From contig OZ244048.1 in the NCBI GenBank assembly GCA_965215265.1, forward strand, positions 224,001-288,000: a stretch of 64,000 nucleotides of DNA, written 5' to 3'. This DNA comes from Candidatus Poribacteria bacterium (GTDB taxonomy: Bacteria > Poribacteria > WGA-4E > WGA-3G). A model generated the notes under the pieces. That model saw nothing but the letters and a program-made list of their open reading frames with translations, was not told where the DNA came from and ran no database searches. The position numbers and the translations under genes were made by a program. Shown piece by piece: positions 1 through 58,273 of this stretch. Positions within the stretch are counted from its first letter, which is position 1, and every line of letters starts with the position of its first letter.

Positions 1-1116
1 GGAGCCTGCGAAGTTCCTGTTGTTCGCTAAAGTGATAGTTATTGATGCGATAATGAGCGATTCCGCGGTGTTCGGCAATAGTTGTCTGGATGCGTTTCAT
101 TGTCGTCTGTATCGCGCCTCTGTTCAGATCTGCGGCGATCCAGCGTCTGCGGAGTTTTTCAGCGACGACTGCGGTGGTGCCACTGCCCACAAAGCAATCA
201 AGCACGATGGAGTCTTCGTTGCTTGACGCTTTGATGATACGGGCTAGAAGAGCCTCCGGTTTTTGAGTAGGAAAGTCGGAACGTTCCCCATCCATAGTGT
301 TAAGAGCGGGAAGAATAATTACATCATCAGGAGTTTTACCTTTTGGCATTTCTTTACCCTCTTGACCACCACTTTTGTATCGCCATTCAGTCATACTACT
401 TTCATAAGGGACAAGTATTTCGTCACGATTGAAAATGTATTTGTCCTGCGATTTGGTATACCAGAAAATAGTCTCATGCGCATGGGCTAATCTCTTTTTT
501 CCACGAGAGGCGTTCTTGTAGTACCAAATAATTTCATTCTGAAATAGTTCTTCGTCAAATACCTCATCCATGATTATTTTTAAATAGTGACTTTTCTCAT
601 GGTTGCAGTGCAAGTAAATTGAACCTTTATCTGATAGCAGTTCGCGCATCAAGATTAGGCGTTCAAACATGAACTGGAGATAATTGTCATTCGCCCAGAT
701 GTCGGTGTATTGTGTCTGTTCAATAATGGAGGGGCCTTCGCCTGTTAAAGAAGCAGGTTTACCCCCCCCCTACTCCCACCTGGGTTCCCAGCACCTTCAT
801 CCAAGGTTGACCTGCTAATGCCGCGGAGTTTTACCTTTCGAACGTAGTCTGCACCGCTGGCAAAGGGCGGGTCAATGTAGATGAGGTCTATCTTACTGCG
901 GAAACCGTTGACGAGTAAGGTGGAGAGGATCTCCTTGTTATCCCCGTGAAAAAGGAGGTTCGGCCCCTCCAAAAATCCATCATATAGCGGCTCTTTCTCT
1001 GCGTTTTCAACGTTACAAGTTTCCACCAATTGGGCGGGATAGTTGCTCACCGTGCCGATGGGGCGTTTGCCCACCCAGTGCAGCATTGCTCTCCCTTTAA
1101 CCGGCGTAATTTTCAT
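1..1116 (-). CDS. DNA adenine methyltransferase (N6/N4, beta class, type III Mod-like), copy B; frameshifted at poly-G9 (762-770); 3' end runs off window
   Basis: ATG at 1116 after GAGGAG. N-half has HGDNKE..DLIYIDPPF. Manual translation past the G tract is open to the window edge: EQTQYTDIW..GSIYLHC..FPTQKPEALLARIIKASS..VLDCFVGSGTT (motif I). Confidence 0.9.
762..770 (-). repeat. Poly-G9 simple sequence repeat in MTase copy B (out of frame; G7 or G10 restores frame)
   Basis: Minus strand AGTA-GGGGGGGGG-TAAACC; reading ends ..SRGGVNLLL*. Confidence 0.9.
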
Positions 1117-1159
1117 GAGTTCTCCTCTCGCATAGGGCTTCAGGTCCTTTTTTTTGATG

Positions 1160-2930
1160 TTATTCTGTGATGAGAGTTTCCTCGCCAAGCATATCAATAA
1201 TCTTGACGGCAACACGGGCATCAGGACGCGGCAGCACTACCGTGTATTGGCCCTTGATAAAATCGGTTCTCTTCTCCGGCACATCACTCGCAACGATTCT
1301 GACATGCCTGCCGTTGTAGTCCGTATCTATCAGCACGCAATCAATCTGCGCACGGAAATCATCAACTTGTTCGTCAAAGAGGGTGCGGGCTATCTCCAAA
1401 CGCCCTAAGAGGCTCGGACTGATATAATCTACGAGGGTGATGGTGACGTGTTGCCCGTCTCTTTTGAAGGCAACTTCTGCTTCAGCAGGGGCGAAGGTGG
1501 TGACACCGTCGCGTTGGATGTCCCGCACGATGAATTTATTAATCGAGTGCCGCTTGTTTTCTGAGTCAAGTTCGGCTTGTATTCCCAACTCGCTGCCGTT
1601 GCAGAGGACTGTAACAGCGCGTGCCTCATCAGGGCGGTGCTGAAGTTCGTCTTTGATAAGTTGAATATCTAATCGGGTGAGCGGTTTTGTCAGCTCAACG
1701 ATTTTGACAAGCGTCCCCTCTACGGTGCCGTCAAAGAATCGGTCTTTCTTGTCCGTTTCTATGCCATACTTTTCGATGACAAGCCGATGGAGTTCTTGTT
1801 CTTTGCCAAAGTGATAATTATTGATGCGATAGTGAGCGATTCCGCGGTGTTCGGCAATGGTTGTCTGGATGCGTTTCATTGTCGTCTGTATCGCGCCTCT
1901 GTTCAGATCTGCGGCAATCCAGCGTCTGCGGAGTTTTTCAGCGGCGACTGCGGTGGTGCCACTGCCCACAAAGCAATCCAAGACAATGTCGTTTGCGTTA
2001 GAAGAGGCTTTGATAATCCGCTCAAGCAGCTTCAACGGTTTCTGCGTAGGATACAGCCTTTCTGAAGCCTGCTGGTTAATAATAGGAATATCTGTCCAAT
2101 AAGAAAGGACATTCCTACCTTTTCCATTGTAATACGCCTTTTTATTAGCTTTCCTAGACCAATAATAAAAGCGCTTTCCATTTTCATCTATTTCGGGATA
2201 CTGCTCAATAAGTTCATCATGTGACATTTCTAAAAATTGCCTGTTCAATGTGTTCGCTTTTCCTTTTGCGTAGAAAAGGAGAGTGTCGTGTTTTCGCGGA
2301 TATGCCCCTTCTGCAGGCTTGCCTCTATCTCCATACCCCCATACAATCTCATTCCGAAACTTATCCTCACCAAAAACCTCATCCATAATCAGTTTCAGAT
2401 AATGACTCATCGTGGGGTCACAGTGCAGGTAAATAGAACCAGCATCCGACAGCAGTTCCCGCATCAAGATAAGCCGCTCAAACATGAACTGGAGATAGTT
2501 ATCATTCGCCCAGATGTCAGTATATTGTGTCTGTTCAATAATGGAGTGACCTCCGCCTGTTAAAGAATCGGTTTTACCCCCCCCTACTCCCACGCGGGTT
2601 CCCAGCACCTTCATTCAGAGTAGTCCCTCTAATGCCGCGGAGTTTCACCTTTCGGACGTAATCTGCACCACTAGCAAAGGGCGGGTCAATGTAGATGAGG
2701 TCTATCTTACTGCGGAAACCGTTGACAAGTAAGGTGGAGAGAATTTCTTTGTTATCCCCGTGAAAAAGGAGGTTCGGGCCCTCCAAAAATCCATCATATA
2801 GCGGCTCTTTCTCTGCGTTTTCAACGTTATAAGTTTCCACCAATTGGGCGGGATAGTTGCTCACCGTGCCGATGGGGCGTTTGCCCACCCAGTGCAGCAT
2901 TGCTCTCCCTTTAACCGGCGTAATTTTCAT
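1160..2930 (-). CDS. DNA adenine methyltransferase (type III Mod-like), copy A; frameshifted at poly-G8 (2577-2584)
   Basis: ATG at 2930 after GGAGG. ORF 2574-2960 carries DPPF; ORF 1160-2614 carries the TRD, YPTQKP and DCFVGSGTT. The two are offset by +1 at the G tract. Confidence 0.9.
2577..2584 (-). repeat. Poly-G8 simple sequence repeat in MTase copy A (out of frame; G7 or G10 restores frame)
   Basis: AGT AGG GGG GGG TAA stops; removing one G gives AGT AGG GGG GGT AAA ACC (SRGGKTDS). Confidence 0.9.
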
Positions 2931-2989
2931 CGTGTTCCTCCGAATCTCCAGATTTTTCATGTGCCACAGAACGCATTTCCTCAGCTGGA

Positions 2990-3270
2990 TGTGTGCGGCG
3001 GCACTCCTTTAACCCTGAGAGAATATCTAACGTTTTATCCAATGGCAATGGATGGTTGACACGAAAAAGATAAGCAAGATTCTGATAACTGAGTTGTCTC
3101 CATGCCACAAGGAAAGCAATTCCGCCTTTTGCTTCTGCTACCTCTTTTATGGCGTGCAATAGTCTTTCAATGTTCCCATCCTTGTCAAAATCGGCTCATA
3201 CAGCTTCCAGATAACCTTTGGCAAACCCCGGTTCAGCAAGCTCTTTAAGAAGAGGGGGATTGAAAGGCAC
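2990..3270 (-). pseudogene. Addiction-module antidote (HTH antitoxin, HI1420-like) with internal TGA
   Basis: LLKELAEPGFAKGYLEAV*ADFDKDGNIERLLHAIKEVAEAKGGIA..LSYQNL; stop at 3196-3198. Confidence 0.65.
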
Positions 3271-3319
3271 TGTGCACTTCTGAAGCCTGGTTTCGGTATT
3301 TGTTGTCCTTGTTCCTTCC

Positions 3320-3428
3320 TATGTTCTAAGAAGTCGTTCCAATAGTTTTGTGTTCTGGCAATGTCTTGCTGTTGTGTGCGTTTAGTTCCGCCACAAAGCA
3401 GAATAACTGGCGAATTTGCATATCTCAA
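3320..3428 (-). pseudogene. C-terminal remnant of RelE/ParE-type addiction-module toxin
   Basis: VILLCGGTKRTQQQDIARTQNYWNDF matches the LLCGGxKxTQxxDIxxAxxYW toxin tail; no N-terminal half seen. Confidence 0.65.
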
Positions 3429-3740
3429 GTATAGAAAATTTTTGCCGAATTGTCAAGCCCTTTCTCACGGATTTATGGAACCAACGCTTTCTTATCTCGG
3501 TTTTCATGCAGAGCCACCACAGAGGCGATCCAGTCTGAGGTGATACAAGAGCACTGCTTTTCTCACAGACAAACCTAACAATATCACACATACTACTCTC
3601 AAAAAAAAATGGGGGCAAGTGAGAGATTTGTCCTGATAATACTGTTTTACTATATGGATTCAACCGGTTCAGTTTTGTGAGGTACTGGGAGGCACAACAT
3701 TCTATGCTCCGGTTACAAGCATTGACAAATTTATTTTAAT

Positions 3741-3813
3741 TTGACTTTACATTGAAAATTATGATATAATTTATGTCAAAATATTGCTTAACGATTAATC
3801 TGTATGCTATAAT
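3741..3813 (+). promoter_or_regulatory. Sigma70-like promoter(s)
   Basis: TTGACT-18bp-TATAAT with TGn extension (3741-3770); second TGcTATAAT at about 3805-3813. Confidence 0.45.
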
Positions 3814-3859
3814 AGGTTTAAATTATCACGGTGTGGAGACTAAAAAATTCAGTAATGCT

Positions 3860-4232
3860 TGGATGCGGTGTAGATCATATTGCAATCCAGACGCGTGATT
3901 GGGAAACATCCTTAGTTTTCTATAGAGATGTCTCGGAATGGAGCCTATTGCCGAATTTAGGGGGACATCCGGAAAATTGTACTGTTAGACATGGGCGATG
4001 ACAGTCACATGGAATGGTTTCAACCGGCTGCAGATTCCTCCTGGGCCCAAAGATGCGAGCCCGAATGACCCGGCGACACATTTCGCTCTTGCCACAACGG
4101 ATGTGCGCGATGCCGTCGAACAAGTTCAACAAGCCGGTACCAAAATAACGTTGGAGCTGCTCGATGTAATGCAACTATTGCTTTTTTTACGGGCCCTAGT
4201 GGTGAAGTAATTGAGTTTTTTTCAAACGCATT
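3860..4232 (+). pseudogene. VOC/glyoxalase family pseudogene (several frameshifts)
   Basis: Segments in different frames: VDHIAIQTRDWETSLVFYRD / LGMEPIAEF / VLLDMGDDSHMEWFQP / THFALATTDVRDAVEQV / FFTGPSGEVIEFF. Confidence 0.7.
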
Positions 4233-4423
4233 AATCACTTGGTTACAAAATGAGAAATAGTTAATATGTAATTCTTGGTTAGGTATTTTGGTAGTGCGCT
4301 TAAGATTCCCGGTTATGAGATAAAGAGAATCCATCGTCTGTTGCTTGGGTATCAGTTACTGAATTTCTCTGCGAGGAATCTCCACGATTGGGCTGTATAG
4401 CGTTTTTTGTTTTTAACAAGATA

Positions 4424-4909
4424 ATGACAGAAACCGAAAAATCCCACATTTTTGAATTGTTGTCTCCTATGCTATTGATTGATAGCATTGAGTTAGTAGA
4501 TGTTGAGGCACAAGGGAAGACGTTACGGCTCCTGATTTACAAATCCGGGGGGCTTTCAATAGCGGATTGCCAGTCCGTGAATGCTATTGTTCACCCAATT
4601 TTGGAGGTGCATCAGTATTTAAGAACCTATGCGCAGCTTGAAGTGGCTTCTCCGGGGATAGATAGACCTTTGAAAACAGCTGCAGACTTCCGTCGAAATC
4701 AAGGCAAGACTGTCCGGATTGAGACTGTGTCGAAAGACGAAAAAGGCACGAGCGGAAGCTGTAACGCCCCCTCCGTAGAAAACGCGGTAGTGCAAGGTTC
4801 TATCAAGGAAGTCCTGGATGGCACGGTCGTCGTTACTCAAAGCGATGGAAAGAGTATGCAGATTGAATTATCCTGCATTCACAATGCGTGCATACAGTTG
4901 GAGTGGTGA
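4424..4909 (+). CDS. rimP: Ribosome maturation factor RimP
   Basis: LRLLIYKSGGLSIADC, LEVASPGIDRPL; upstream of nusA. Confidence 0.9.
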   Translation: MTETEKSHIFELLSPMLLIDSIELVDVEAQGKTLRLLIYKSGGLSIADCQSVNAIVHPILEVHQYLRTYAQLEVASPGIDRPLKTAADFRRNQGKTVRIETVSKDEKGTSGSCNAPSVENAVVQGSIKEVLDGTVVVTQSDGKSMQIELSCIHNACIQLEW

Positions 4910-5225
4910 TGAAAATTCAAAAAACAATTTGCAGGATTAGAATACCTAAGAGGAATTGTGGCTTACCGTCTTATGGGAGGCAATTTGACAGTGTTAACAG
5001 TACACGATTTCCATTTGCACTTTGTTTCATTGAGAAGCCTATCCATTAGGTGGTGTTTGTCTCTTGACTGCCTTATAGGAGATAGGGCTATTTAGTTTTA
5101 GGTTTTGCTTCTAATTAAGTTTTTTTATGAGGTGTCGTGTGTCTTCTCTGCAATATCTGATAAAAGTAATTCACGCATATAAATCAAATTTGTAAAACTA
5201 AATAACTCTATATAGGAGATAATGT

Positions 5226-6904: not shown

Positions 6905-8956
6905 ATGAAAAGTGCCGAACAGCGAGGGCAAAAGTCAGCCAAAGAGAATCGGACGACCCGGAGAACGCGGGTTCAAGAATTGGCAAAGCAGTATGAGTTG
7001 ACTAATAGGGAACTCATGACGTTCTTGGAGAAGCTGGGCATTCGTGTCAGGAGTCAGACGAGCTTCCTCGATGAGGAAACGGTGTTACTTATTGAAGCTG
7101 AATTACAGGCTGAGGAGTCTGGATTAGCAAGTCCTTCTGCAGAAGAATTGAGGCTTGAGGGCTCGTCTACAGGGGACGAATCGGCAGGGATAAGTGACGG
7201 TTCCAATGTTAAGTTGCAAGTCACTGAAGGTATTACTGTTTCCAATCTTGCTTCAATGCTGGGTCTACAACCTACTGAATTGATTATACGCCTGATGAAT
7301 TTAAAGGTTATGGCGACTATTAACCAACAATTGGATTATAAAACACTTGAGATGCTTGGGGAGCATCTGGGTTTTGAAGTTATCAAGGCCCGGACGTTAG
7401 AAGAGGAGCTCTTAGAAGATACACCGGATACACCGGAATCATTAGAACCGCGCGCGCCGGTTATTACTATTATGGGCCACGTTGACCACGGTAAAACGTC
7501 CCTTTTGGATCGAATTCGACAATCAAATATCAGTGAATCAGAAGCAGGTAATATCACACAACATATTGGCGCGTATCATGTAACTTTAGATGGCGGAAGC
7601 ATTGTCTTCCTTGATACCCCTGGGCACGCTGCGTTCACGGCCATGCGTGCCCGTGGGGCTCAAGTCACGGATATTGTGGTACTGATTGTTGCGGCAGACG
7701 ACGGTGTGATGCCGCAGACAGTAGAAGCCCTCAATCATGCTAAAGCGGCGAAAGTTCCAATCGTTGTCGCGATTAACAAGATTGATGTGTCCGGTGCACG
7801 CCCTGACTATGTAAAGCAGCAGTTGAGTGAACACGAATTGATTCCGGAAGAATGGGGGGGACAGACAATTTGTGTTGAAACCTCCGCTATTGATGGTATC
7901 GGCATTGATTTTTTGCTTGAGATGCTTCTTTTGGAAGCCGCCTTGCTGGAACTTAAGGCGAACCCGGCAAAGCCTGCCCGTGGTGTAATTATAGAAGCAA
8001 AAGTCGATAAGGAGCGTGGTGCACTCGCCACAGTTTTGGTACAATCTGGAACGCTGCGGGTTGGCGATGTGTTCGTTTCCGGGAGATTCTCTGGAAAAGT
8101 CAGGGCAATGATGGACGACCTTGGAAAACGGATGAAGGAAGCCGGCCCTGCCTGTCCAATCGAAGTGCTTGGTTTTACAGGAGTACCCGAAGCCGGAGAC
8201 AAATTCCACGTTGTTGAATCTGAAAAAGATGCACGGGCGATAAGCGAGGCACGGCAAGACTTATACCGGTCTGCGAAACTCGGACAGAACAGCCGCGTCA
8301 GCTTAGATGCACTATTCCAGCAGATTCAGGATGGCGACATCAAAGAATTGAGTGTTGTCGTGAAAGGTGATGTGCAGGGTTCTGTCCAAGCTGTCAGTGA
8401 ATCGTTGCTCAATATGGACACTGATGAGGTAAAAATCAATATTATCCATCAAGGCACCGGCAACATTACGGAAACCGACATTCTGCTGGCATCAGCATCG
8501 CAAGCCATCGTTGTTGGATTCAATGTTGATTCGACACCTGAAGCTTTGCAGGCGAAGGAGACAGAGGGAATAGATATGCGTACTTATGACATCATCTATA
8601 ACCTCATTTCCGACATTCGTTCTGCCATGGAGGGTTTACTCGACCCGGAAGTCCGCGAGATAGTTATCGGACGAGCAGAGGTACGAGAATTGTTCCGGGT
8701 TCCCCGGCTTGGGTTAGTTGCCGGCAGTTATGTTAATTGGGGCAGAATCGCTCATGACCATCCGCTTCGCATTCTTCGCGGGAATCGCTTAATTCATGAA
8801 GGCAAGGTCAATTCCCTCCGTCGATTCAAAGACAATGTCAATGAAGTTCAAGCGAATTATGAGTGTGGCATCGGTATTGAGACCTTTGAGGACTTGAAAA
8901 TTGGAGATGTTATTGAGTGTTATGTACACGAACAGGTAGCACGATCTCTTTCTTAG
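6905..8956 (+). CDS. infB: Translation initiation factor IF-2
   Basis: MGHVDHGKTSLLD, DTPGHAAFTAMRARGA, NKID, SLRRFKDNV. Confidence 0.98.
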   Translation: MKSAEQRGQKSAKENRTTRRTRVQELAKQYELTNRELMTFLEKLGIRVRSQTSFLDEETVLLIEAELQAEESGLASPSAEELRLEGSSTGDESAGISDGSNVKLQVTEGITVSNLASMLGLQPTELIIRLMNLKVMATINQQLDYKTLEMLGEHLGFEVIKARTLEEELLEDTPDTPESLEPRAPVITIMGHVDHGKTSLLDRIRQSNISESEAGNITQHIGAYHVTLDGGSIVFLDTPGHAAFTAMRARGAQVTDIVVLIVAADDGVMPQTVEALNHAKAAKVPIVVAINKIDVSGARPDYVKQQLSEHELIPEEWGGQTICVETSAIDGIGIDFLLEMLLLEAALLELKANPAKPARGVIIEAKVDKERGALATVLVQSGTLRVGDVFVSGRFSGKVRAMMDDLGKRMKEAGPACPIEVLGFTGVPEAGDKFHVVESEKDARAISEARQDLYRSAKLGQNSRVSLDALFQQIQDGDIKELSVVVKGDVQGSVQAVSESLLNMDTDEVKINIIHQGTGNITETDILLASASQAIVVGFNVDSTPEALQAKETEGIDMRTYDIIYNLISDIRSAMEGLLDPEVREIVIGRAEVRELFRVPRLGLVAGSYVNWGRIAHDHPLRILRGNRLIHEGKVNSLRRFKDNVNEVQANYECGIGIETFEDLKIGDVIECYVHEQVARSLS

Positions 8957-8979
8957 GTAAGCTTGCAAGTGGTTAATTC

Positions 8980-9264
8980 ATGCACATCGGTATTTGTAAA
9001 GTTTGTCTCAGGATCCCTCAAAGTTGTTCACTTAAGGAGAAACGTCGCGTTATCAAAAGCCTTGTTATCCGGCTCAAGAATCGGTTCAATGTTGCCGTTG
9101 CCGAAGTGGATGCATTAGATGCGCATCAAACTGCTGTGCTAGCTGCTGTATCGGTTTCTAACGATGCTGCATATCTAAATGGCATTCTTTCACGGGTTGT
9201 CACCTTTATTGATACAAATGCCGCCGCTGAATTGGTGAATTATGAAACTGAATTTTTCTTTTAG
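8980..9264 (+). CDS. DUF503 (YlxP) family protein
   Basis: SLKEKRRVIKSL..RFNVAVAEV; infB-rbfA context. Confidence 0.85.
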   Translation: MHIGICKVCLRIPQSCSLKEKRRVIKSLVIRLKNRFNVAVAEVDALDAHQTAVLAAVSVSNDAAYLNGILSRVVTFIDTNAAAELVNYETEFFF

Positions 9265-9273
9265 AGGCAAATA

Positions 9274-9636
9274 ATGGAAAACAGTAGAAGACGCGATCGG
9301 GTTGGATCGCTTATCCAACGAGAATTAAGCGAGATTCTTCAGCGAGCAATCAAAGATCCGCGGCTTGCATTGTGTACTGTTACACATGCAGAGGTCTCTG
9401 CGGACTTAAAATATGTGGACGTGAAAGTAAGTGTTATCGGGGATGCAGAACAGAAGGATAACGCTATTGCCGGCTTGAAAAGTGCTACTGGGTTTCTCAG
9501 GCGCGAGATCGGGCGTCGTCTAACACTCCGATATTCACCGGAACTGCGATTCGCTTTGGACGACTCTGTTGATCATCTGATGAAGATAGATGAGCTCTTA
9601 AAATCGGCTGATTCGGGAGATGAAGATTCGGGATAA
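9274..9636 (+). CDS. rbfA: Ribosome-binding factor A
   Basis: IKDPRL..VSADLK..GFLRREIG..LRYSPELRF. Confidence 0.95.
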   Translation: MENSRRRDRVGSLIQRELSEILQRAIKDPRLALCTVTHAEVSADLKYVDVKVSVIGDAEQKDNAIAGLKSATGFLRREIGRRLTLRYSPELRFALDDSVDHLMKIDELLKSADSGDEDSG

Positions 9637-12474: not shown

Positions 12475-14799
12475 ATGAAATTTGAAATGCAACTTGGGAG
12501 TGAGAAGTTATCTATTGAAACCGGAAAAGTTGCAAAACAAGCAGACGGTGCCGTTTGGGTACAGTACGGCGGAACAGTTGTCCTCGTTACAGTAGTAGCC
12601 GACCCGAGTGAAAATGACTTGGATTTCTTTCCATTAACGGTAGATTATAGAGAAAGGGCCTACGCCAGTGGGCGCATCCCGACTGTCTATGGGCGCAGAG
12701 AACCACGCCCCGGTACATCAGAACAACTCGTTGCACGATTAATTGACCACTGCATCCGGCCATTATTCCCAAAGGACTTTAAAGCCGAGGTTCAGGTTTT
12801 ATGCAATGTGTTATCCTCGGATGGCATCCACTCTGCCGACGTACCCGCGCTGATCGGTACATCGGCAGCACTCTCCATATCAGATATCCCCTTTAACGGT
12901 CCGGTTGCAGCGGTAACTATGGGAAAAGTAGACGGAAAACTGATTGTTAACCCCAGTTACGAGGCACTGCATGAATCAGATATGGAACTTTTCGTCAGTG
13001 GAAAGATAGACGCGGTGATGTCAGTTGAAGGCGGGGGACATGAAATTCCCGAAGACGAAGTTATTGATACAATCATCACTGCGCACGCAGAGATAAAGGA
13101 AGCTATCAAAATTCAAGAAGCCTTAGCAGCTGTTAGCAGTCGTCAGAAGCGCGACTATGCAGCAAAAAGTGTAAAATCAGAGCTCAACCGTCGCGTCCGA
13201 GATCTGGCTACATCAAAAATCCAGGAATCTATCGGAATGGCAGATAAGAAATCCCGCGAAGACTATCTCGAACAGGTACAGGAAGAGGTGTTATCGGAGA
13301 TCTTGGTGGAAATACCGGAAGAGGTAGACCCAACAGCGACGAAGGATGCAATTTCTATTTTGAGTGACATTGAGAAAGAGGAGATGCGTCAGGCGATTCT
13401 GACCGAGGGAACGCGCGTTGATGGACGGGGCGTAACCGACATCCGCTCTATTTCTGGTGAAGTCGCTTTACTTCCATACGCCCATGGCTCTGCACTCTTC
13501 ACCCGTGGACAAACACAAGCACTCTGTGCAACAACCCTTGGTACCTCCGGCGATGAAGACGTGCAACGGGGACTTGAAGGAGAAGCCAGACGCTCCTTCT
13601 TCCTCCACTACAACTTCCCCCCTTTTAGCACCGGTGAAGTCAAACGAATGATGGGCCCCGGACGCCGGGAAATCGGACACGGCGCACTCGCTGAGAAAGC
13701 ACTCGAACCGGTGATTCCAAAAAAAGAGGATTTTCACTATACTATCCGGGTTGTCTCTGAGATATTGGAATCGAATGCTTCTTCTTCAATGGCAACCGTG
13801 TGTGGCGCGACGCTCGCCCTGATGGATGCAGGAGTGCCTATTAAAAAACCCGTGGCAGGAATTGGCATCGGTTTGATCAAAGAAGGCGAGAACGAGGTTA
13901 TTCTCACCGATATGCTTGGCACTGAGGATTTCCTCGGGGATATGGATTTCAAAGTCGCAGGTACAAGCGAAGGGGTTACTGCCATCCAAATGGATATCAA
14001 AATTGATGGCGTGACACCGGAACTGATGCGCACCGCCATCCATCAAGCAAAGAAAGCACGGCTTGCTGTCATTGAACAGATGAACGCTATCATTGCTGAA
14101 CCTCGTCAAGAATTGTCGCCTTATGCACCGCGTATCCATTCTATACAGATTGCGCAGCAGAAGATTAAAGACCTCATCGGACCGCGTGGTAAAACCGTAC
14201 AAGGTCTTCAGGAAGAGACTAACACCACGATTAACATCGAAGATGATGGGACCGTGGAGATCGCCGCAACTAGCGTGGAAGATGTACGCCTCGCTGAAGA
14301 AAAAATTCGTGCAATCACCGCGATGCCGGAGATCGGTAAGGAATACACAGGCAAAGTCGTCCGCACTGCTCCTTTTGGTGCTTTTGTTGAAATCCTACCG
14401 GGTAAAGACGGCCTCGTCCACATTTCGCAGATGGGCGACGGCTATGTCCGCCGCGCCGAAGATGTTATGCAAGTTGGAGACGAAGTTACCGTGCGCATTC
14501 TTACTATAGATGAACAGGACCGGCTGGATCTGACTTTGATAGCTGCTAGGGGAATACCCGTCGAAGAACTCAACGTAGGCGGAAACTCAGACAACGATTC
14601 GGAATGGAATGATTCGAGGGAACCCCGGGACTCAGGCCGCTACAATTACCGTGACAACCGCGATTCGCGAGACTATCGTGGAGATCGACGGAATCGTGAT
14701 TCACGGGAAAGACGCGGCGGTCGCTATGATTCGTCGGATAACGAACGCGACTTCCGAAATCGTCGTACACCACGCATCCCAAAGGGACGTTCCAGATAG
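12475..14799 (+). CDS. pnp: Polyribonucleotide nucleotidyltransferase with R/D-rich tail
   Basis: RREIGHG, ESNASSSMA, GDMDFKVAG, KH and S1 domains. Confidence 0.97.
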   Translation: MKFEMQLGSEKLSIETGKVAKQADGAVWVQYGGTVVLVTVVADPSENDLDFFPLTVDYRERAYASGRIPTVYGRREPRPGTSEQLVARLIDHCIRPLFPKDFKAEVQVLCNVLSSDGIHSADVPALIGTSAALSISDIPFNGPVAAVTMGKVDGKLIVNPSYEALHESDMELFVSGKIDAVMSVEGGGHEIPEDEVIDTIITAHAEIKEAIKIQEALAAVSSRQKRDYAAKSVKSELNRRVRDLATSKIQESIGMADKKSREDYLEQVQEEVLSEILVEIPEEVDPTATKDAISILSDIEKEEMRQAILTEGTRVDGRGVTDIRSISGEVALLPYAHGSALFTRGQTQALCATTLGTSGDEDVQRGLEGEARRSFFLHYNFPPFSTGEVKRMMGPGRREIGHGALAEKALEPVIPKKEDFHYTIRVVSEILESNASSSMATVCGATLALMDAGVPIKKPVAGIGIGLIKEGENEVILTDMLGTEDFLGDMDFKVAGTSEGVTAIQMDIKIDGVTPELMRTAIHQAKKARLAVIEQMNAIIAEPRQELSPYAPRIHSIQIAQQKIKDLIGPRGKTVQGLQEETNTTINIEDDGTVEIAATSVEDVRLAEEKIRAITAMPEIGKEYTGKVVRTAPFGAFVEILPGKDGLVHISQMGDGYVRRAEDVMQVGDEVTVRILTIDEQDRLDLTLIAARGIPVEELNVGGNSDNDSEWNDSREPRDSGRYNYRDNRDSRDYRGDRRNRDSRERRGGRYDSSDNERDFRNRRTPRIPKGRSR

Positions 14800-14985
14800 A
14801 ATCTTTCCATTTTAAAGAAGTGTGATAAAAAGGATTTGTGAATCGTCGCAGAAACGGTAGTATGATAAATGCTTCATTTTTCATACTACCATATCGTTCA
14901 AATTCTCTCCTAGCGGCTCACTCAGGTGGCACTTTTCGCAGAAGAAACAGACATCTTGGAAAAATAACGGAAGGGGAGGTTACTC

Positions 14986-15240
14986 ATGAAAGCTCGACTA
15001 TCCAAAAGACGACAGATTCAGAAGGCGAAAGGCGATTTGCTAGATCAGAAATGGCTAACCTATTTTTTGGTTATTATTCTCGTTCTGCTTATTGTGACAT
15101 TTGTGGTTTTATCATCCCCCGCGTATAAAAAACAGTTTATTGAAAGTGTCAAAACCGTATTTTATGGGAAGAAACAGAAGACTCGACGTCCTCAAGCTTC
15201 ACCGGCGGCTTTTCAGGGACCGACTCTGATTGGGAGGTAG
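14986..15240 (+). CDS. Small single-pass membrane protein
   Basis: RBS GGAGG; hydrophobic helix WLTYFLVIILVLLIVTFVVL. Confidence 0.6.
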   Translation: MKARLSKRRQIQKAKGDLLDQKWLTYFLVIILVLLIVTFVVLSSPAYKKQFIESVKTVFYGKKQKTRRPQASPAAFQGPTLIGR

Positions 15241-15243
15241 AAC

Positions 15244-15759
15244 ATGTCTAAATTGATGTTACTTTTAGCCATCCCGGTATTGCTATGTATAATCCCGGGT
15301 TGTGGATATGTTTCCAAGTCCGCTTATCTGGAGCATATTGAAACGATCAGGGTCCCACCCATTGAGATCTTGGATGCTGATTTTGCTTATGATGAAATCA
15401 CACAACGTCCTTATGATGAAGTCATTCAAGAAAAACTCATCCAACGTTTCAACCGCAAATGGCGAGATGGAAGCGACTCCCAATTTACGATGCGGATACA
15501 GGATTATAATATAAAGGAGCACGGGTTTGGCCCCAGCGGTGAAGTTGAGATGTTGCGGATGAGCCTACAAGTGGAATATGAATTTCTTGATAGAATCCGC
15601 AATAACATAATCGCACAAAGTACGAACCACGTCCAGGTTCATGATTTTTACCTTGTACCCAACCGAGGCGAACCGCCGGAAACCGTCAACCAAGCAAAAG
15701 GGCTGATAGTAGACGAATTGATAGAGGATCTTTACAATCAACTTGCTGAACAGTGGTAG
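15244..15759 (+). CDS. Lipoprotein, LptE-like
   Basis: Lipobox IPGC-GY; length and terminal ..EQW pattern as in LptE-like proteins. Confidence 0.55.
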   Translation: MSKLMLLLAIPVLLCIIPGCGYVSKSAYLEHIETIRVPPIEILDADFAYDEITQRPYDEVIQEKLIQRFNRKWRDGSDSQFTMRIQDYNIKEHGFGPSGEVEMLRMSLQVEYEFLDRIRNNIIAQSTNHVQVHDFYLVPNRGEPPETVNQAKGLIVDELIEDLYNQLAEQW

Positions 15760-15774
15760 CATTCCCAAAAATTA

Positions 15775-15865
15775 TAGAGTCAATACATCAGGAACCTCCG
15801 ACGAGATTTATACACGAGCTGTCAATACCTAAGCGTTGATGGTACGTACGGAGATATACGAAAAA
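15775..15865 (+). repeat. Dispersed palindromic repeat family, right arm
   Basis: TAGAGTCAATACATC..CTCCGACGAGATTTATACACGAG..AAGCGTTGATGGTAC..GGAGATATACGAAAAA. Confidence 0.85.
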
Positions 15866-17011
15866 ATGAAAAGGCACGGCATAGTTTTGTTCGCAATTTT
15901 ATCGATCTCAATGCTTGGATGCGGTTCCTGTGATAGTGAACCAGGCAATTGGACAGTTGTCAACCAAATTGGTAATTATATCTACGGTGTATGGAAGGGG
16001 CCAACGGTGAAGGTAGCGTCGCAAGCAATGCGAGAAATCGCTGTGAACATTGGCGCTCAAGGTGACCGGCCGTCGGCACTAGCTACCCAAACGACTCTTG
16101 CCCCGGAGTCCCTCTTGCCTATAAAAGTGTCCGCCGGACGCGGGGCAACGGCATCTGATTGGATACAATCTAGAACACCATCAACATATCATAATACCCA
16201 AACGCTCTACCATGATAGGGCTGTAAAACCCGATATCTACTATGCCTATGGCTTCAAGCGACAAGCAGAGGTAGAGTACCAAGCATCAAGATTCGGTGCC
16301 AAACCCCTAATTTTACTTGAAATCTTCGATATGGGAACCCCAGAAAACGCCTTTGGCATTTATAGTTTTAACACCTATCCACAAGCGAAGATAGAATGGG
16401 TTGGCAGTAAGGCACTTCTTTCAGGTGGATACCTCCGGTTTTCTAAAAGTAAATATTTTATTCAGATAGAGGGGTACGAATTTGCAACCGGCATTCGCGA
16501 AGGAATGATCGCCTTGGCAAAAGTCGTCGCTTCCCAGATTAAAGAACCTCCAACTAAAGTGCCTTTACTAGCACTGCTACCAAGTCATAGAATCAACGGA
16601 AGTGAAAAACTCTTCCGCACAATTTGGACGCTAGACCAAATCTATAATGGCTTGCCGTCTCATCTCCCCCAATTTACCGACAAAAGGTTGCCCGCACTTC
16701 GTGAAGTAGATACCGCTGCTCTTCACAATGAACGGAGCAACAATACAGCAGAGTGGGCTTCAAGCGAGCTTCCAACTGAGATTGCGATGGAAATCAGTGC
16801 TGAAACTCCTATTGGTGTTTCAGCACGTTATCATGCTAAGGGGACCACAAACTGGCTGGATGCACCGATTGTTTTCATTATACGTTTTTCCGATGCCTCC
16901 ACTGCTGAGTCTGTTTACGCACTTTACCGGAACGCTGTGACAGAGAAAACCTCGTCTATCAAAATTGGAGAAGATGGGGAAATCCTAATCGATGAAACTT
17001 CTCGTTTATGA
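15866..17011 (+). CDS. Hypothetical lipoprotein (DUF6599-like)
   Basis: Signal peptide with LGC; EIFDMGTPENAFGIYS motif. Confidence 0.65.
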   Translation: MKRHGIVLFAILSISMLGCGSCDSEPGNWTVVNQIGNYIYGVWKGPTVKVASQAMREIAVNIGAQGDRPSALATQTTLAPESLLPIKVSAGRGATASDWIQSRTPSTYHNTQTLYHDRAVKPDIYYAYGFKRQAEVEYQASRFGAKPLILLEIFDMGTPENAFGIYSFNTYPQAKIEWVGSKALLSGGYLRFSKSKYFIQIEGYEFATGIREGMIALAKVVASQIKEPPTKVPLLALLPSHRINGSEKLFRTIWTLDQIYNGLPSHLPQFTDKRLPALREVDTAALHNERSNNTAEWASSELPTEIAMEISAETPIGVSARYHAKGTTNWLDAPIVFIIRFSDASTAESVYALYRNAVTEKTSSIKIGEDGEILIDETSRL

Positions 17012-17023
17012 AAATTCGCAGAA

Positions 17024-17305
17024 TTTTTCGTATTCGTATATCTCCGTTTTTTCGTATCTCTCGGTACTACCAACGTCTATGCTTTTGATGGTTCGTGTTG
17101 TAAAGGTTTTAACATTGCAGTGGCAGGATAGGTATTCTTTGTCTCTCCTTTCAGGAGTAAAAAAGATAACCGAACCCCGCCAAAAGTTATCAGCGGTGAA
17201 GAGAATGATGTTTAGAGTCAATACATCGAACGGCTCAGACGAGATTTATACAGTAATTTACAAAACATAATGCGTTATCGGGCTGAAATATACAAAAAAC
17301 GAAAA
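17024..17305. repeat. Mosaic repeat (arms plus 62-bp TGGCAGG..CCCGCCA hairpin)
   Basis: Shares modules with 22935-23300 and 34476-34825. Confidence 0.85.
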
Positions 17306-17326
17306 AGTGAGTCAAGGAGGAATGTT

Positions 17327-18085
17327 GTGCGAGGCGATTTTGAAGCGTATCTGAATGACGATTTTCGCGATGAAAATGGAAAACTGGATTTAGGAAGTCT
17401 TTTGGAATTAGAGGACGAAGCGGACATTGATGTTGCTGTGATTATGCCGAATACCCAACCGAATCCGCAAAATGCGGCACTTGCTGATGCGATTCGTGGA
17501 AATCCACGCGCGCTTGGATGTGCCCTTATACATCCGACAGAAGCGCAACCTGTACAGCAGGTTCAGCAGGCAGCAGATACTTGGGGAATGCGTGGTATTA
17601 AACTCATGCCAACTGTGCATAATTACAATGTGGATGATGAAATAGTACAACCGGTAGTTGAAGCTGCACGTGAGCATGGGCTCATCATCTCAATTCATTC
17701 CGGCCCTAACAATTGTCATCCGAACCGTATCGGCAAAGTTGCAAGTTGGGTGCCTGAGACACCGGTCATCATGGATCATATGGGCTTGCCGGAGGATTTG
17801 GATGCAGCAATTTCGGTAGCACAACGAAACCCGAATGTCTTCCTCGGAACTACAATCCTCCGCTTTCATAGACGCTGGGGAACGGATGCAAATACGGTCG
17901 TTCCGATGGAGGTAAAGAAAGCAGTCGCTGCCGTGGGGCCCGAGCAAATTGTATTTGGCTCCAATCTGCCTGAGTACCGTCCAATTCAGGTTATCAATGC
18001 CCTAAAGAGATTGGAGCTCGGTGACGACGCAGAAACTCTTATTTTTGGTGGGAACCTTGCTCGCATTTACGGATTAGAAACGTAG
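17327..18085 (+). CDS. Amidohydrolase_2 family metal-dependent hydrolase
   Basis: RGIKLMP, IHSG, IMDHMG, IVFGSN, IFGGNLAR; GTG after AAGGAGG. Confidence 0.85.
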   Translation: MRGDFEAYLNDDFRDENGKLDLGSLLELEDEADIDVAVIMPNTQPNPQNAALADAIRGNPRALGCALIHPTEAQPVQQVQQAADTWGMRGIKLMPTVHNYNVDDEIVQPVVEAAREHGLIISIHSGPNNCHPNRIGKVASWVPETPVIMDHMGLPEDLDAAISVAQRNPNVFLGTTILRFHRRWGTDANTVVPMEVKKAVAAVGPEQIVFGSNLPEYRPIQVINALKRLELGDDAETLIFGGNLARIYGLET

Positions 18086-18100
18086 GCACATTTGTATCAT

Positions 18101-18210
18101 AACCTAGAAAGGCTCAGACGAGATTTACACACAGGACATCGTGACATAAGTTGCGAGATAAGAATACCTATCTCGCAACCCACTGGGTGATGACGGTATG
18201 GAGATATACA
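18101..18210 (+). repeat. Repeat arm with nested hairpin
   Basis: GGCTCAGACGAGATTTACAC..GACATAAG[TTGCGAGATA AGAATACC TATCTCGCAA CCCACTGG]..GGAGATATACA. Confidence 0.8.
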
Positions 18211-18225
18211 GAGAGGTTTTTAAAG

Positions 18226-19305
18226 GTGAGCACGCTAAAACGCACACCTCTTTATGATGTTCACACTGCACTCACTGCAAAATTTACCCACTTCAGCGGA
18301 TGGGAGATGCCGCTCCAGTACAGCAGCATTGTCACGGAGCATCTCTCTGTGCGGCGCGCTGTTGGGCTGTTTGATTTGTCCCACATGGGAGAAATTGAGG
18401 TCCGCGGACACGGGGCAAACGAGTTGGTTCAAAAACTCAGCACCAACGACGTGAACCGTTTAACCGATGGACGTGTGTTGTACACACTCCTTTGTAACGA
18501 GACAGGTGGAATAGTTGATGATATTCTCATTTACCGCCGCACCGATAACTACTATATGCTGGTTGTCAACGCTGCCAACATTGAAAAAGATCTGGCATGG
18601 CTGGAACTCCATAATGACGAGGACGCGGATGTAAGAGATGTAAGCGAGGACACAATCCTCATTGCGCTACAAGGACCTGCAGCAATCAAAACGCTGCGTC
18701 CCCTCGTACCCAAGTTGGATGTGGGAAAAATTCCGTATTTTCGGTTTGCCAACGGCGAGATAGCAGGGATGCGGACTGTGATTTCACGAACCGGTTACAC
18801 AGGGGAAGTCGGTTTTGAGTTGTATGTGGACACCAAAAACGCAAAACGTTTGTGGGATACGCTTTATCCCGCAGTGACATCGGCTGGCGGACAACCCGTC
18901 GGACTTGGTGCACGTGATACACTACGACTTGAAGCAGGGCTTCGACTCTACGGCATGGACATGGACGAAAACACGACACCCTTTGAAGTTGGGCTGAGTA
19001 GGTTTATCAAATTTAAGAACCGACAATTTATTGGCAAGGCAGCACTCCTCGCACAGAAACGGAAAGGAGCCCTTGCAAGGCAGATGGTAGGTTTTCAGAT
19101 GCTTGGCCGCGCCGTGGCACGTGCTGGCCATCACGTCTATCAAAAGGGCAAGCACATAGGGAATGTGACGAGCGGTGCACCTTCACCGAGTCTTAAATGT
19201 AATATCGGTTTCGCGTCCATCTCTCAAAATATTGGGAAAAGCATCGAAATTGACATCCGAGGAAAACTGCACCCTGCGAAAATCGTGGAAATCCCTTTTT
19301 TATAG
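18226..19305 (+). CDS. gcvT: Glycine cleavage aminomethyltransferase T
   Basis: LKRTPLY, GWEMPLQY, FDLSHMGE, SRTGYTGE, GLGARDTLRLEAG. Confidence 0.96.
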   Translation: MSTLKRTPLYDVHTALTAKFTHFSGWEMPLQYSSIVTEHLSVRRAVGLFDLSHMGEIEVRGHGANELVQKLSTNDVNRLTDGRVLYTLLCNETGGIVDDILIYRRTDNYYMLVVNAANIEKDLAWLELHNDEDADVRDVSEDTILIALQGPAAIKTLRPLVPKLDVGKIPYFRFANGEIAGMRTVISRTGYTGEVGFELYVDTKNAKRLWDTLYPAVTSAGGQPVGLGARDTLRLEAGLRLYGMDMDENTTPFEVGLSRFIKFKNRQFIGKAALLAQKRKGALARQMVGFQMLGRAVARAGHHVYQKGKHIGNVTSGAPSPSLKCNIGFASISQNIGKSIEIDIRGKLHPAKIVEIPFL

Positions 19306-29982: not shown

Positions 29983-30168
29983 AATCTGAGCGGTTAACGT
30001 GCCTATCTATACGGAGATTTCCGAATCTGGTAGCACGTTCCAAAGTTCTTTTCAGGTTGACCTTTTTTTTATTTCTGGTAAAATCTTAAATGTTTGGGCA
30101 AAACATCCACTAGAATCGGGTAGACGTGTAAAATGTTATAGCGTCTACTGTCTATAGGAGAGATGTGC

Positions 30169-30510
30169 ATGGAACTTGGCAGCATCATACTTTTTGTCAA
30201 AAACATGAAGGCTGTAATCGCATTTTACAGAGATGTCATCGGGTTACGCCCTGATGACGAGCAGCCGTTCCCGGAACACCGCTTTTTTCGTTTTAATACC
30301 GGGGCATGCAAATTGTGCCTCCATAGCGCAAGTAAACCGAATGAAGGAAGACAAAAGATCGTCTTTCACGTTGAGAGTGTCAATGCCGTTCATCAGGAAC
30401 TGAAGGCGAAGGGGTTGCGATTGCGAAAACTTCAGAATGAAGACGGGCTCGCGTGCTTCGATATTTCTGATCCGGAAGGTAACCGTATTCAGTTTGGCGG
30501 AAAGTACTAG
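30169..30510 (+). CDS. VOC/glyoxalase family protein
   Basis: IILFVKNM..FYRDVIG, DPEGNRIQF. Confidence 0.85.
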   Translation: MELGSIILFVKNMKAVIAFYRDVIGLRPDDEQPFPEHRFFRFNTGACKLCLHSASKPNEGRQKIVFHVESVNAVHQELKAKGLRLRKLQNEDGLACFDISDPEGNRIQFGGKY

Positions 30511-38987: not shown

Positions 38988-40568
38988 TTGTTACTTTCAA
39001 TAATCATTTTTTTACCATTGCTCGGCGTGATAGCGATTGCGTTGCTCAGAAGGTTAGGCCCATCTGCTATCAAATGCATCGCACTTGCTATCGGGCTACT
39101 AACCTTTGTCATTTCGCTGGGGCTTTACACCGGGTTTGACACCGATATAGCGGGAATACAACCTAAATTCGAGCAAAATCGAACCTGGATCCAAGGGTTA
39201 GGAGTAAATTACCACATCGGCATTGACGGTATCTCGTTGTGGTTAGTGCTGCTAACGACATTTTTGACACCCGTGTGTATTCTCGCAGCCTGGAACTCAG
39301 TTGAGAAGGGATTGAGCGGCTTCCTCATGTCATTGCTCGCACTTGAGACTGGAATGTTGGGTGTGTTCTGTGCCTTAGACCTATTCCTATTTTTCGTCTT
39401 TTGGGAATCCATGCTCATTCCAATGTATTTTCTCATCGGAATTTGGGGCGGTGAACGCCGCATTTACGCGACTGTGAAGTTTGTACTCTATACGATGGCT
39501 GGCAGTGCCTTGATGCTGGTTGGTATTCTTTACCTTTACTTCCAAAACGACAATAGTTTTGCACTGCTGACGTTATACGAGAAAGCAAGCACGGGAACCT
39601 TCCAGCACGCGAATCTCTTATTTCTTGCATTTTTCATTGCCTTCGCCATAAAAGTGCCGCTCTTTCCATTCCATACCTGGCTGCCAGATGCACACGTAGA
39701 AGCACCGACAGTCGGGAGCGTCATCCTTGCCGGTGTGCTCCTCAAAATGGGTACCTATGGTATCGTCCGATTTTGCCTGCCTCTCTTCCCTGAGGCAGCG
39801 GTTACCTATACCCCTTTGATAGCTACGCTCGCTGTAATCGGCATTATTTATGGCGCGTTGGTGGCGATGGTGCAGCCCGATTTAAAGAAACTGGTAGCCT
39901 ATTCTAGTGTCAGCCACCTCGGCTTTGTGGTGTTAGGGCTTTTTTCCGCACATCACGCAGGCATCCAAGGTGGTGTTCTGCAGATGATTAATCACGGATT
40001 GAGTACGGGGGCACTCTTCCTTTTGGTAGGCATGATTTACGAACGGCGGCACAGTCGAATGATTGTGGACTTCGGCGGTCTTGCGAAAAAGATGCCGATT
40101 TTCGCCACACTCTTTATGATTGCAACTTTATCGTCTATTGGGCTACCGGGGCTGAACGGATTCGTCGGTGAATTTATGATACTGCTCGGCAGTTTTGTCA
40201 GTGGTGCCTTCTCCAAAGTCTACGTCGTACTCGCGGCAACCGGTGTGATTCTTGCAGCCATCTATATGTTATGGATGTTTCAACGTGTCATGTTTGGCAC
40301 GCCTGATAAAATTAACGCCGCACTGCCTGATTTGACAGCGCGTGAATTGATTGTCTTGCTGCCACTCATGCTATTCATTGTTTGGATAGGCGTTTATCCA
40401 AAGCCATTTCTCAGTCGAATGGAGAAGTCTGTAGATGTCGTCGTGAAGCAAGTACGGCGTGGAACAGCTCCAGCAATTGGACAGGTCACCCCTCAAATAG
40501 GGGAAATCTCTGTACCTCAAACGTCCAATAAATCATTTTTACACACGGAGGGAGAAATAAGTCAGTGA
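38988..40568 (+). CDS. nuoM: NADH-quinone oxidoreductase M
   Basis: FAIKVPLFPFHTWLPDAHVEAP, LLKMGTYG; TTG start after AGGAGG. Confidence 0.96.
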   Translation: MLLSIIIFLPLLGVIAIALLRRLGPSAIKCIALAIGLLTFVISLGLYTGFDTDIAGIQPKFEQNRTWIQGLGVNYHIGIDGISLWLVLLTTFLTPVCILAAWNSVEKGLSGFLMSLLALETGMLGVFCALDLFLFFVFWESMLIPMYFLIGIWGGERRIYATVKFVLYTMAGSALMLVGILYLYFQNDNSFALLTLYEKASTGTFQHANLLFLAFFIAFAIKVPLFPFHTWLPDAHVEAPTVGSVILAGVLLKMGTYGIVRFCLPLFPEAAVTYTPLIATLAVIGIIYGALVAMVQPDLKKLVAYSSVSHLGFVVLGLFSAHHAGIQGGVLQMINHGLSTGALFLLVGMIYERRHSRMIVDFGGLAKKMPIFATLFMIATLSSIGLPGLNGFVGEFMILLGSFVSGAFSKVYVVLAATGVILAAIYMLWMFQRVMFGTPDKINAALPDLTARELIVLLPLMLFIVWIGVYPKPFLSRMEKSVDVVVKQVRRGTAPAIGQVTPQIGEISVPQTSNKSFLHTEGEISQ

Positions 40569-47693: not shown

Positions 47694-48495
47694 ATGAAAC
47701 CAACAATCATGATTTTAGGCAGTGAGCATTTGGCAAACCCAGGTGCAGACACGTTCAATCGGAAGATGGATGATGTCCTCGCCCCCAAACGCCAACGAGA
47801 ACTTGAACAACTCACTCAGCAATTGACAGAATTTAAACCCACTAAGGTAGCGCTTGAGATTGATGAAGAAAGGTCTGACGCTGATGTTCAGGAAAAGTAT
47901 CAAGGCTATCTGAATGGAACATATGAACTGACACGATCCGAAGGCGACCAGATCGGGTTCAGGTTAGCCAAGCAAATGGGGCATTCAAAGGTATACTGTG
48001 TCGATTATTTTCCAGAGAGTGAGTGTGCAGGACCCCTTTCATGATGTACTGAAAAAGATTTGGGTGGATTCTGAGGCAATTGCCAAAGCCAACAATCAAG
48101 AACATCTGTTGTCGTCTGTTCCTGAAGGGCGTATAACTGAAGATGAAGACGGGACAATCTGGATTGAGCCTGAGAAGTATGAACCTCTGATAAATACCTA
48201 TATCCGGTTGAACCAGCCTGAAGGTCGGTTGGCTGATCATCAACATTACTTGAGAGCGGCACGAATTGGACAAAAGGCACAATATCCGGCAACGAATTGG
48301 GTGTCACACTCTTGGTATGATAGGAATCTCAAAATTTTTGTCAATCTGACACGCATCACAGAATCTGCTGAAGATAGGATTTTGTTACTTATCGGGGCAG
48401 GGCATGTATATCTGGTTCAGCAATTTCTGCAGGATTCAGGCGATTACGTGGTAGAAAGTCCACTCCAGTACTTAACCCCAGAGCAAACCGAATGA
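47694..48495 (+). pseudogene. DUF5694-like protein, frameshifted at GAGTGAGT (48017-48024)
   Basis: IMILGSEHLANP..FKPTKVALE.. / WYDRNLKIF..ILLLIGAGHV; removing one GAGT fuses the two ORFs. Confidence 0.72.
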
Positions 48496-58045: not shown

Positions 58046-58273
58046 CCCCCTTACAAGTCGGATGAGTCTGGCCACTCCCCGCTCGCTGCTTGCGGGTGGT
58101 TAGAGGGCTGCCTTTTCTTTTTTTTCTGTTTTCGTGCAGGTGGACGCAGCCAGTCAAAAAAAAGAGCGACTTTTTTCAAAATCTATGGTATACTTTTTTA
58201 ACGAACCAAGTGACAAACTCGAAAAAAGCAGCTTGCGGCATGCAAGCAAAAAATAATGAGTGGAGGCATTAAG

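Follow-up and report, generated by a model that had tools for sequence, protein, structure and literature searches.

Are two neighboring DNA methyltransferase genes, each broken by a run of guanines, switched off reversibly or lost for good? The question is raised by the first 2930 bases of the 64-kb stretch of contig OZ244048.1 analyzed here (hereafter the window), which hold, on the minus strand, two tandem β-class N6/N4 DNA methyltransferase genes, copy A and copy B. Mod genes gated by simple sequence repeats (SSRs) are well known in host-adapted pathogens. We take the two copies to be genuine mod paralogs of the poly-G contingency type, at present in the OFF state, and we infer the switching itself; that tandem Type III-like mod paralogs, each with its own target-recognition domain (TRD) and hypermutable poly-G tract, are toggled here by slippage has, in our estimate, a probability of roughly 0.48, a shade under even odds.

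Two methyltransferase genes interrupted by G tracts

The features of the two genes are listed below (positions in the window, minus strand throughout; ORF, open reading frame; AdoMet, S-adenosylmethionine).

1160–2930, minus: copy A, Mod-like methyltransferase, 589 amino acids (aa) at G7 (590 at G10); PF01555 match, E = 6.6e-44
2574–2930, minus: N-terminal fragment ORF of copy A, 118 aa as sequenced
1160–2614, minus: C-terminal frame ORF of copy A, 484 aa as sequenced
2676–2687, minus: catalytic motif IV (DPPF) of copy A, residues 82–85
2577–2633, minus: lineage-specific insert of copy A, ∼19 codons, residues 100–118, IRGTTLNEGAGNPRGSRGG, ending in the G tract
2612–2614, minus: internal ATG in the insert of copy A; at G8 it opens the C-terminal frame 41 nt before the stop of the N-terminal fragment
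2577–2584, minus (C8 on the plus strand): G8 tract of copy A, OFF; in frame at G7/G10
2051–2371, minus: variable target-recognition region of copy A, 107 aa, MDEVF to PTQKP
1952–1972, minus: AdoMet-binding motif I (FVGSGTT) of copy A
1117–1159, minus: spacer from copy A to copy B; contains an A8 run and, ahead of the copy B start, a GGAG-type ribosome-binding site
1–1116, minus: copy B, paralogous methyltransferase, truncated by the window edge; PF01555 match, E = 4.5e-45
745–1116, minus: N-terminal fragment of copy B
761 to base 2, minus: open C-terminal frame of copy B, extending 206 aa past the edge as judged from P0010
862–873, minus: catalytic motif IV (DPPF) of copy B, residues 82–85
762–770, minus (C9 on the plus strand): G9 tract of copy B, OFF; in frame at G7/G10
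272–556, minus: variable target-recognition region of copy B, 95 aa; identity with the copy A region, 24%

Copy A starts at base 2930, its protein beginning MKITPVKGR, and copy B at base 1116; the distance of 1814 bp between the two Mod-like starts given in a sequence-only reading of this DNA is correct. Ribosome-binding sites lie ahead of both start codons, and the N terminus of copy B is identical to that of copy A in 112 of 118 residues. Database protein P0010 matches the 223 window residues of copy B exactly and continues for another 206, in agreement with the earlier estimate that copy B ends ∼620 bp beyond the window edge. The C-terminal frame of copy A scores 150.9 bits with PF01555 (cutoff 26.7), and the motif order is that of the β-class, DPPF (residues 82–85 in both copies) being followed by the variable region and then by FVGSGTT. 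A terminator-like hairpin followed by a T-run is found inside the conserved N-terminal coding part of each copy (2768–2784 and 954–970, minus strand), where LEGPNLLFHG is encoded, and is probably incidental to the coding sequence.

As had been claimed, the break in both genes falls between motif IV and the TRD, at homologous G-runs. The lengths and positions reported then (G9 at 762–770, G8 at 2577–2584) stand, and we correct the strand: the genes lie on the minus strand, and the tracts read as C-runs on the plus strand. The tract closes an insert of ∼19 codons that has no counterpart in most full-length relatives, and past the G-run the reading frame ends within 0–5 codons in both copies. When tract lengths from G5 to G12 were substituted by script in both copies, only G7 and G10 opened either one, copy B then being open to the window edge. 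The copies are indeed OFF in different frames and would both be ON at G7 or G10. The G-run is the sole lesion in copy A (1.77 kb) and in the part of copy B that is seen (1.1 kb), so each gene is otherwise an intact ORF, again as proposed.

The G8 and G9 tracts exceed every other G/C run of the 64 kb in length, and the only other G/C run of at least seven bases is a G7 in infB, which is in frame. For independent, identically distributed bases the window would be expected to hold ∼0.9 runs of at least eight bases and ∼0.2 of at least nine. The two tracts are homologous through duplication and hence do not represent independent events; they have stayed uninterrupted in both copies, though the 15 nt on either side differ.

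Comparison of the two copies revealed 94% identity in the first 346 bp, 82% in the 221 bp that follow, TRDs that cannot be aligned, and 95% identity over 188 bp around motif I. The coding sequence flanking the tracts is under selection: for A versus B, the ratio of nonsynonymous to synonymous substitution rates (dN/dS) is 0.13 across 741 nt on the two sides of the tract, and it is 0.11, 0.085, and 0.21 in the three conserved segments. The segment just after the tract has a dS of 1.09 and a dN of 0.09. Among the window copy and its 11 close relatives, the backbones after the TRD are 88–97% identical and most TRDs 19–48%. These twelve sequences hold ten TRD types, and two types recur at 83–89% identity on backbones that are just 72–74% identical. 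Judged from the sequences, this is the pattern of mod alleles whose TRDs swap by recombination, which is suggested because the identities of TRD and backbone are discordant.

Tracts and partner genes in the wider family

A search with the C-terminal frame of copy A returned relatives in 7987 of 8000 scored candidates. Scanning species-representative genomes gave 79 loci (L001–L079), mostly from metagenome-assembled genomes (MAGs) of sponge symbionts in many phyla, with Poribacteria first among the closest loci. Because the best locus is only 64% identical to the window, the window's own species is not among the genomes scanned. A Poribacteria MAG locus, L036, is syntenic with the window (pnp at 81% aa identity, three further neighbors, and gcvT), which together with the closest loci supports the Poribacteria host named by the sequence-only reading. 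In L036 (388–13947) an island of res, HigBA, and mod genes is inserted between an amidohydrolase gene and gcvT, which are neighbors in the window (12475–19305); the island thus occupies different sites in related genomes.

In most copies compared, DPPF and QYTDIW are 105 nt apart with no G-run between them; the spacing is 162 nt (+1) in the window and 180 nt in L001. The L001 gene, from Poribacteria (609 aa, P0013), has a related, longer insert with a homologous, in-frame G9 followed by TAAA, and its start overlaps the end of an intact res-like gene. Two loci of a single Poribacteria MAG, L018 (G9) and L007 (G6), carry a run at the same loop with no insert, and both are shifted. OFF frames of the G8 and G9 types are found in the paralogs and close relatives, and the homologous G9 that is ON belongs to the more distant L001. 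L002 (8681–11377) provides a second, independent tandem pair in which each copy has a homopolymer of its own: both copies are shifted by a C9 (8796 and 9817) in an N-terminal loop, the first also lacks the C-terminal domain, and the two tracts are duplicates of each other.

The loci comprise 1.51 Mb and contain 15 G/C runs of at least nine bases. Six of the 15 fall in the family's methyltransferase genes, whose share of the sequence is 10.5% (binomial p = 0.003). Complete family copies are mostly intact (76/83), and one of the seven broken ones is interrupted only by a scaffold gap of N's. We also noted homopolymers near the 3′ end of the gene in other sponge symbionts, a C19 in L066 (11515) that shifts the frame and removes the last ∼20 residues and an in-frame C10 in L062 (11330). 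Very long G/C runs outside the methyltransferase genes are present in the relatives' flanks (G24 at 2680 in L022, C18 at 2595 in L038, C10 at 14436 and C12 at 14617 in L004).

A ResIII-like partner of ∼887 aa is found in 70 of the 79 loci, upstream and on the same strand in 68 of the 70 (six of the nine loci without it have too short an upstream sequence to tell). Examples are L013 4398–7061 and L036 6042–8708. The ResIII scores of the partner, 22.6–28.4 bits, lie at the Pfam threshold (cutoff 22.5), its C terminus gives weak nuclease-like matches (TnsA/VRR-NUC-like), and it has no sequence match in the PDB and none in PADLOC. A HigBA-like toxin-antitoxin pair often lies between the res-like gene and the methyltransferase gene, as in L036, where the pair is intact (8794–9497). 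Judging by these gene neighborhoods, partner and methyltransferase look like an undescribed, horizontally spread Type III-like system in which one to three mods would accompany the ∼887-aa ResIII-like partner, frequently together with a HigBA-like pair, and which appears to be shared by many sponge-symbiont phyla. In four loci one res-like gene is followed by tract-free methyltransferase paralogs: three copies in L004 (4353–14138) and two each in L013 (4398–11455), L054, and L055. This layout suggests that a single Res may work with several Mods. In L004 the first copy is frameshifted, and small genes (PIN, DUF6932) lie between the paralogs there and in L013.

The family can be called Type III-like, resembling Type III systems in build and probably in function, with part of the Type III hallmarks present. 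As in EcoP15I (PDB ID 4zcf), motif IV of the Mod precedes motif I, the TRD is central, and a C-terminal domain follows; the relatives' partner likewise combines a ResIII-type helicase region with a weak C-terminal nuclease-like match. In contrast to EcoP15I, the relatives are ordered res then mod, often with the HigBA-like pair in between, the window has no partner, and the partner matches no solved structure by sequence, with a ResIII score at threshold. In sequence the window copies are only distantly similar to solved Type III Mods: the closest enzyme of known structure is the Type II methyltransferase M.MboIIA (75.5 bits), compared with 49 bits for EcoP15I Mod, and the PADLOC models MTase_II and MTase_III both match. 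Modeling of the full-length relative P0013 gave a low-confidence structure (mean predicted local distance difference test score (pLDDT) 60.9, predicted template modeling score 0.58). The best full-length Foldseek matches of this weak model are 6k0w and 4zcf (template modeling (TM) score 0.34–0.38 over 584–612 columns). These fold matches to Type III Mods, together with the partner in the 70 loci, agree with the Mod-like identity first read from the window. Residues 84–150 of the model, the insert region, have no predicted structure (pLDDT below 50).

A proposed poly-G switch and its alternatives

In the proposed mechanism, two tandem Mod paralogs of a Type III-like family common in sponge symbionts would each recognize DNA through their own TRD, and a poly-G tract would sit in an insert of 19 residues, probably flexible, that separates motif IV from the conserved block after it. 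During replication, slipped-strand mispairing would alter tract length, G7 or G10 giving the full-length enzyme (ON) and other lengths a truncation after ∼118–123 residues (OFF). Since the res partner is missing at the locus, restriction cannot be what switches, and only methylation would be toggled there. The proposal implies that tract length is still changing within the population and that the ON forms would be active. A methylation-controlled regulon, the hallmark of a phasevarion, and the phage-resistance states suggested earlier for the locus are conjectural. Tract age, the recurrence of runs at loops of the family, the lack of a second lesion, low dN/dS, and the change between G8 and G9 in descent all fit a contingency locus.

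The design has published counterparts. Type III mod genes that switch by a G[n] tract and have multiple TRD alleles include Helicobacter pylori modH/modJ/modL and Campylobacter upsaliensis modU, and up to four independent phasevarions per genome occur in Neisseria and H. pylori (PMC5909438); the poly-G mod contingency type is also treated in PMC3711429. That survey of Type III systems regards a mod gene as phase-variable when it carries a mononucleotide tract of nine or more bases (PMC5909438), a length that copy B's G9 reaches, and it also predicts SSR-bearing mod genes in some environmental bacteria. The window copies share with modH/modJ/modL/modU a G-run within the mod frame that gates expression and conserved 5′ and 3′ parts around a variable central TRD; like H. 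pylori and C. upsaliensis, the genome would hold several independently switchable mod genes (PMC5909438). They differ from these genes in being tandem paralogs in one array, with the tract in a lineage-specific insert after motif IV, and in that the host is apparently an uncultivated, Poribacteria-type symbiont of sponges, the locus has no res, and the tract is known from assembled sequence.

Multi-mod switching within one genome is already described, for up to four mods, with n SSR switches yielding up to 2^n methylation states as proposed here (PMC5909438). The mods of those genomes are unlinked and unrelated, whereas those of the window are adjacent paralogs that, with backbones 88–97% identical, could also recombine. 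Among open papers we found none on tandem paralogous mod genes each with its own tract, the nearest on tandem or adjacent mods being an Actinobacillus pleuropneumoniae paper and its preprint, on two separate, unrelated mod genes. Nor did we find an open paper that ties phasevarions or phase-variable methyltransferases to Poribacteria or sponge symbionts, although supplements may list more SSR-bearing mod genes. The duplicated hsdS genes of Type I systems, reported to change specificity through recombination (PMC7394358), similarly keep several alternative specificity modules with conserved flanks at one locus, but in the window each module is a whole methyltransferase gene with its own start, and no inverted repeats or recombinase are seen.

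Several observations weigh against a live switch. The tract states of close relatives were read from protein tails. The 11 best matches to the C-terminal frame (P0001–P0011; 72–96% identity) are all fragments of 425–497 aa that begin at MFERLILMRELL, MRELL, or, in one case, MKVLGTRVGVGGGK and run uninterrupted to a common C-terminal end, IDMLGEET; from these starts it follows that the close relatives are split at the same place. Three of the 11 clusters share a 4.83-Mb contig on which proteins identical to the window fragments also occur, and two share a 183-kb contig. At least four such copies appear to be present in the source genome, P0004, P0009, and P0123 belonging to its other split copies, and the further copies and tandem arrays suspected from the window alone are real. 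A search with the N-terminal fragment found four close clusters (80–96% identity, 96–100% coverage), three with the G8-type tail GSRGG-stop (P0122, P0123, and P0124) and one with the G9-type tail GSRGGVNRLL (P0121, 16 member sequences). As both OFF tail types occur among relatives, tract length has changed during descent. The longer proteins that match this fragment have at most 88% identity and at most 89% coverage among the best 120 of 5247, which indicates that none of these 120 has a window-type insert at full length. No ON allele was thus seen among the close relatives searched, and both OFF frames were, compared with a chance expectation of ∼1/3 alleles ON. The comparison of tract lengths across relatives, proposed earlier as a check, favors a hypermutable tract under selection, in that G6, G8, and G9 occur at the loop, the G9 of L001 is in frame, runs are enriched, and dN/dS is low; every close relative, however, is OFF.

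Further points against the switch come from the locus itself. Copy A's G8 is one base below the nine-base length at which mod tracts are treated as phase-variable (PMC5909438). No res-like gene is present within the 64-kb window (tblastn with four res-like proteins of relatives, best E = 0.23), so the adjacent res gene that would mark a Type III system is missing there. Upstream of copy A lie the remains of a toxin-antitoxin pair and a possible promoter.

2931–3428, minus: decayed HigB/HigA-like toxin-antitoxin pair, directly upstream of copy A; partial match to TIGR02683
3428–3456, minus: candidate promoter TTGACA-17-TATACT (11/12 matches, consensus match only), upstream of the toxin-antitoxin remnant and the array

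The HigB-like toxin has lost its 5′ part, with just the C-terminal ∼45 residues readable, and the HigA-like antitoxin is interrupted by an in-frame TGA at 3196–3198; the pair consists of two pseudogenes. Of three loci without res, two have broken methyltransferase copies; among the 74 that have res, four do (Fisher p = 0.015, small numbers). The lack of an ON allele, the missing res with the decayed toxin-antitoxin pair, and the excess of broken res-less copies fit copies that are stuck OFF.

On these grounds the copies might be decaying remnants of an ancestral phase-variable Type III-like restriction-modification system, in which res was lost, selection relaxed, the G-run was the first site to break, and OFF became permanent, an account we consider rather unlikely. 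The points just listed (no res-like gene, truncated and stop-bearing toxin-antitoxin genes, the broken res-less relatives, and no ON allele among close relatives) speak for it. It sits less well with the lack of a second lesion in copy A, in the 1.1 kb of copy B, or in the 11 C-terminal fragment clusters, with tracts that are still uninterrupted, and with the retention of start codons and ribosome-binding sites. Neutral drift of the tract would also leave ∼1/3 of alleles in frame, and none is. The dN/dS of 0.13 and the saturated dS after the tract point the same way, though they could predate inactivation. The genes might instead be decoded leakily, a little full-length or active enzyme arising by transcriptional slippage on the G-run, by ribosomal slippage (the G8 copy shifting +1 at GGG-TAA-A and the G9 copy −1 on G-GGG-GGG), or, at G8, as a two-piece enzyme assembled from the N-terminal fragment and a product started at the internal ATG at 2614. 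This could reconcile the contingency-locus picture with the stuck-OFF picture, as all close relatives are in either OFF frame and the genes nonetheless look selected. Every slip named would restore the ON frame as read from the sequence, the internal ATG is conserved in copy A, copy B (798–800), and P0002, and the insert falls in the low-confidence, structureless region of the P0013 model. We regard leaky decoding as improbable all the same, as two frames would require two mechanisms, and the marks of programmed ribosomal frameshifting or transcriptional realignment are missing: copies and relatives occupy two frames, RNA structure downstream of the tracts is neither stable nor shared (z = +0.82 and −0.50 versus shuffles), no stimulatory structure is seen, and bases 1–5200 have no Rfam match. 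At G9 the internal-ATG frame closes at once, the next start lying after the EQTQYTDIWAN block. To our knowledge, established bacterial transcriptional slippage sites are A/T runs, which also counts against this route.

That the tracts are in truth in frame and their length was miscalled in sequencing or consensus building, with near-identical paralog flanks contributing, is very improbable. G/C homopolymers are prone to error, the flanks of the copies are 94–95% identical, which complicates polishing, and both tracts are one or two bases off an in-frame length. Against such an artefact, 0 of ∼50 core genes are frameshifted, including those with A8/T8 runs and infB with its G7; the same split recurs in database proteins encoded on numerous contigs, of 2.4 kb to 4.8 Mb and from several archives; the two copies show different OFF lengths; and the G9 of L001 is in frame.

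If the poly-G switch works, contingency-type epigenetic or defense switching would extend to Poribacteria, dominant uncultivated sponge symbionts, in an unusual layout of adjacent, near-identical backbones with different specificities and a tract each. Tract lengths and methylated motifs would then offer a handle on strain-level heterogeneity in sponge microbiomes. We give a small chance to a more elaborate form, in which a recombining array of at least four mod paralogs, each with its own TRD and poly-G gate, would act as a combinatorial methylation switchboard. Its OFF genotypes would be leaky (slippage on G8/G9, or two-piece assembly at G8) and provide low, tunable methylation, and TRD cassettes would travel from copy to copy and from genome to genome by gene conversion between the 88–97% identical backbones. 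Were the copies remnants, the locus would show how such a system dies, with res lost first and the mods then stalling at their own hypermutable site. The gene family itself, as far as its sequences tell, would be an uncharacterized Type III-like system across many sponge-symbiont phyla.

Neighboring genes in the window

Pfam matches were obtained for 52 of the 58 long ORFs scanned in the window. The core genes rimP, nusA, infB, rbfA, pnp, gcvT/H/P, trkA/H, the nuo genes, and the atp genes are each in a single frame, and A8/T8 runs within ribF and gcvP are in frame. Blanket assembly error was rejected on the grounds that the core genes and their A8/T8/G7 runs are in frame; with these homopolymers intact, general homopolymer error is unlikely. 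The earlier observation that no core gene in the window is frameshifted holds for the 58 ORFs, the broken genes, the HigBA-like pair and a DUF5694 gene, being non-core. The DUF5694 gene (47694–48495) is broken into two ORFs that overlap; the break is not at a long homopolymer, and the gene is probably a pseudogene.

Short ORFs in three frames at 3831–4210 (plus strand) look by eye like a glyoxalase/VOC-like gene with several frameshifts, an unconfirmed label: Pfam gave nothing in two fragments, and local tblastn gave only an 18-residue match. Two genes interrupt the complex I cluster, a glyoxalase-family gene (30163–30510) between nuoD and nuoE and a CitMHS_2 transporter gene (40565–42073) between nuoM and nuoN. 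Eukaryote-like repeat proteins are often reported from sponge symbionts, and the window encodes a 576-aa protein of eukaryote-like character with 11 WD40 repeats (58256–59986).

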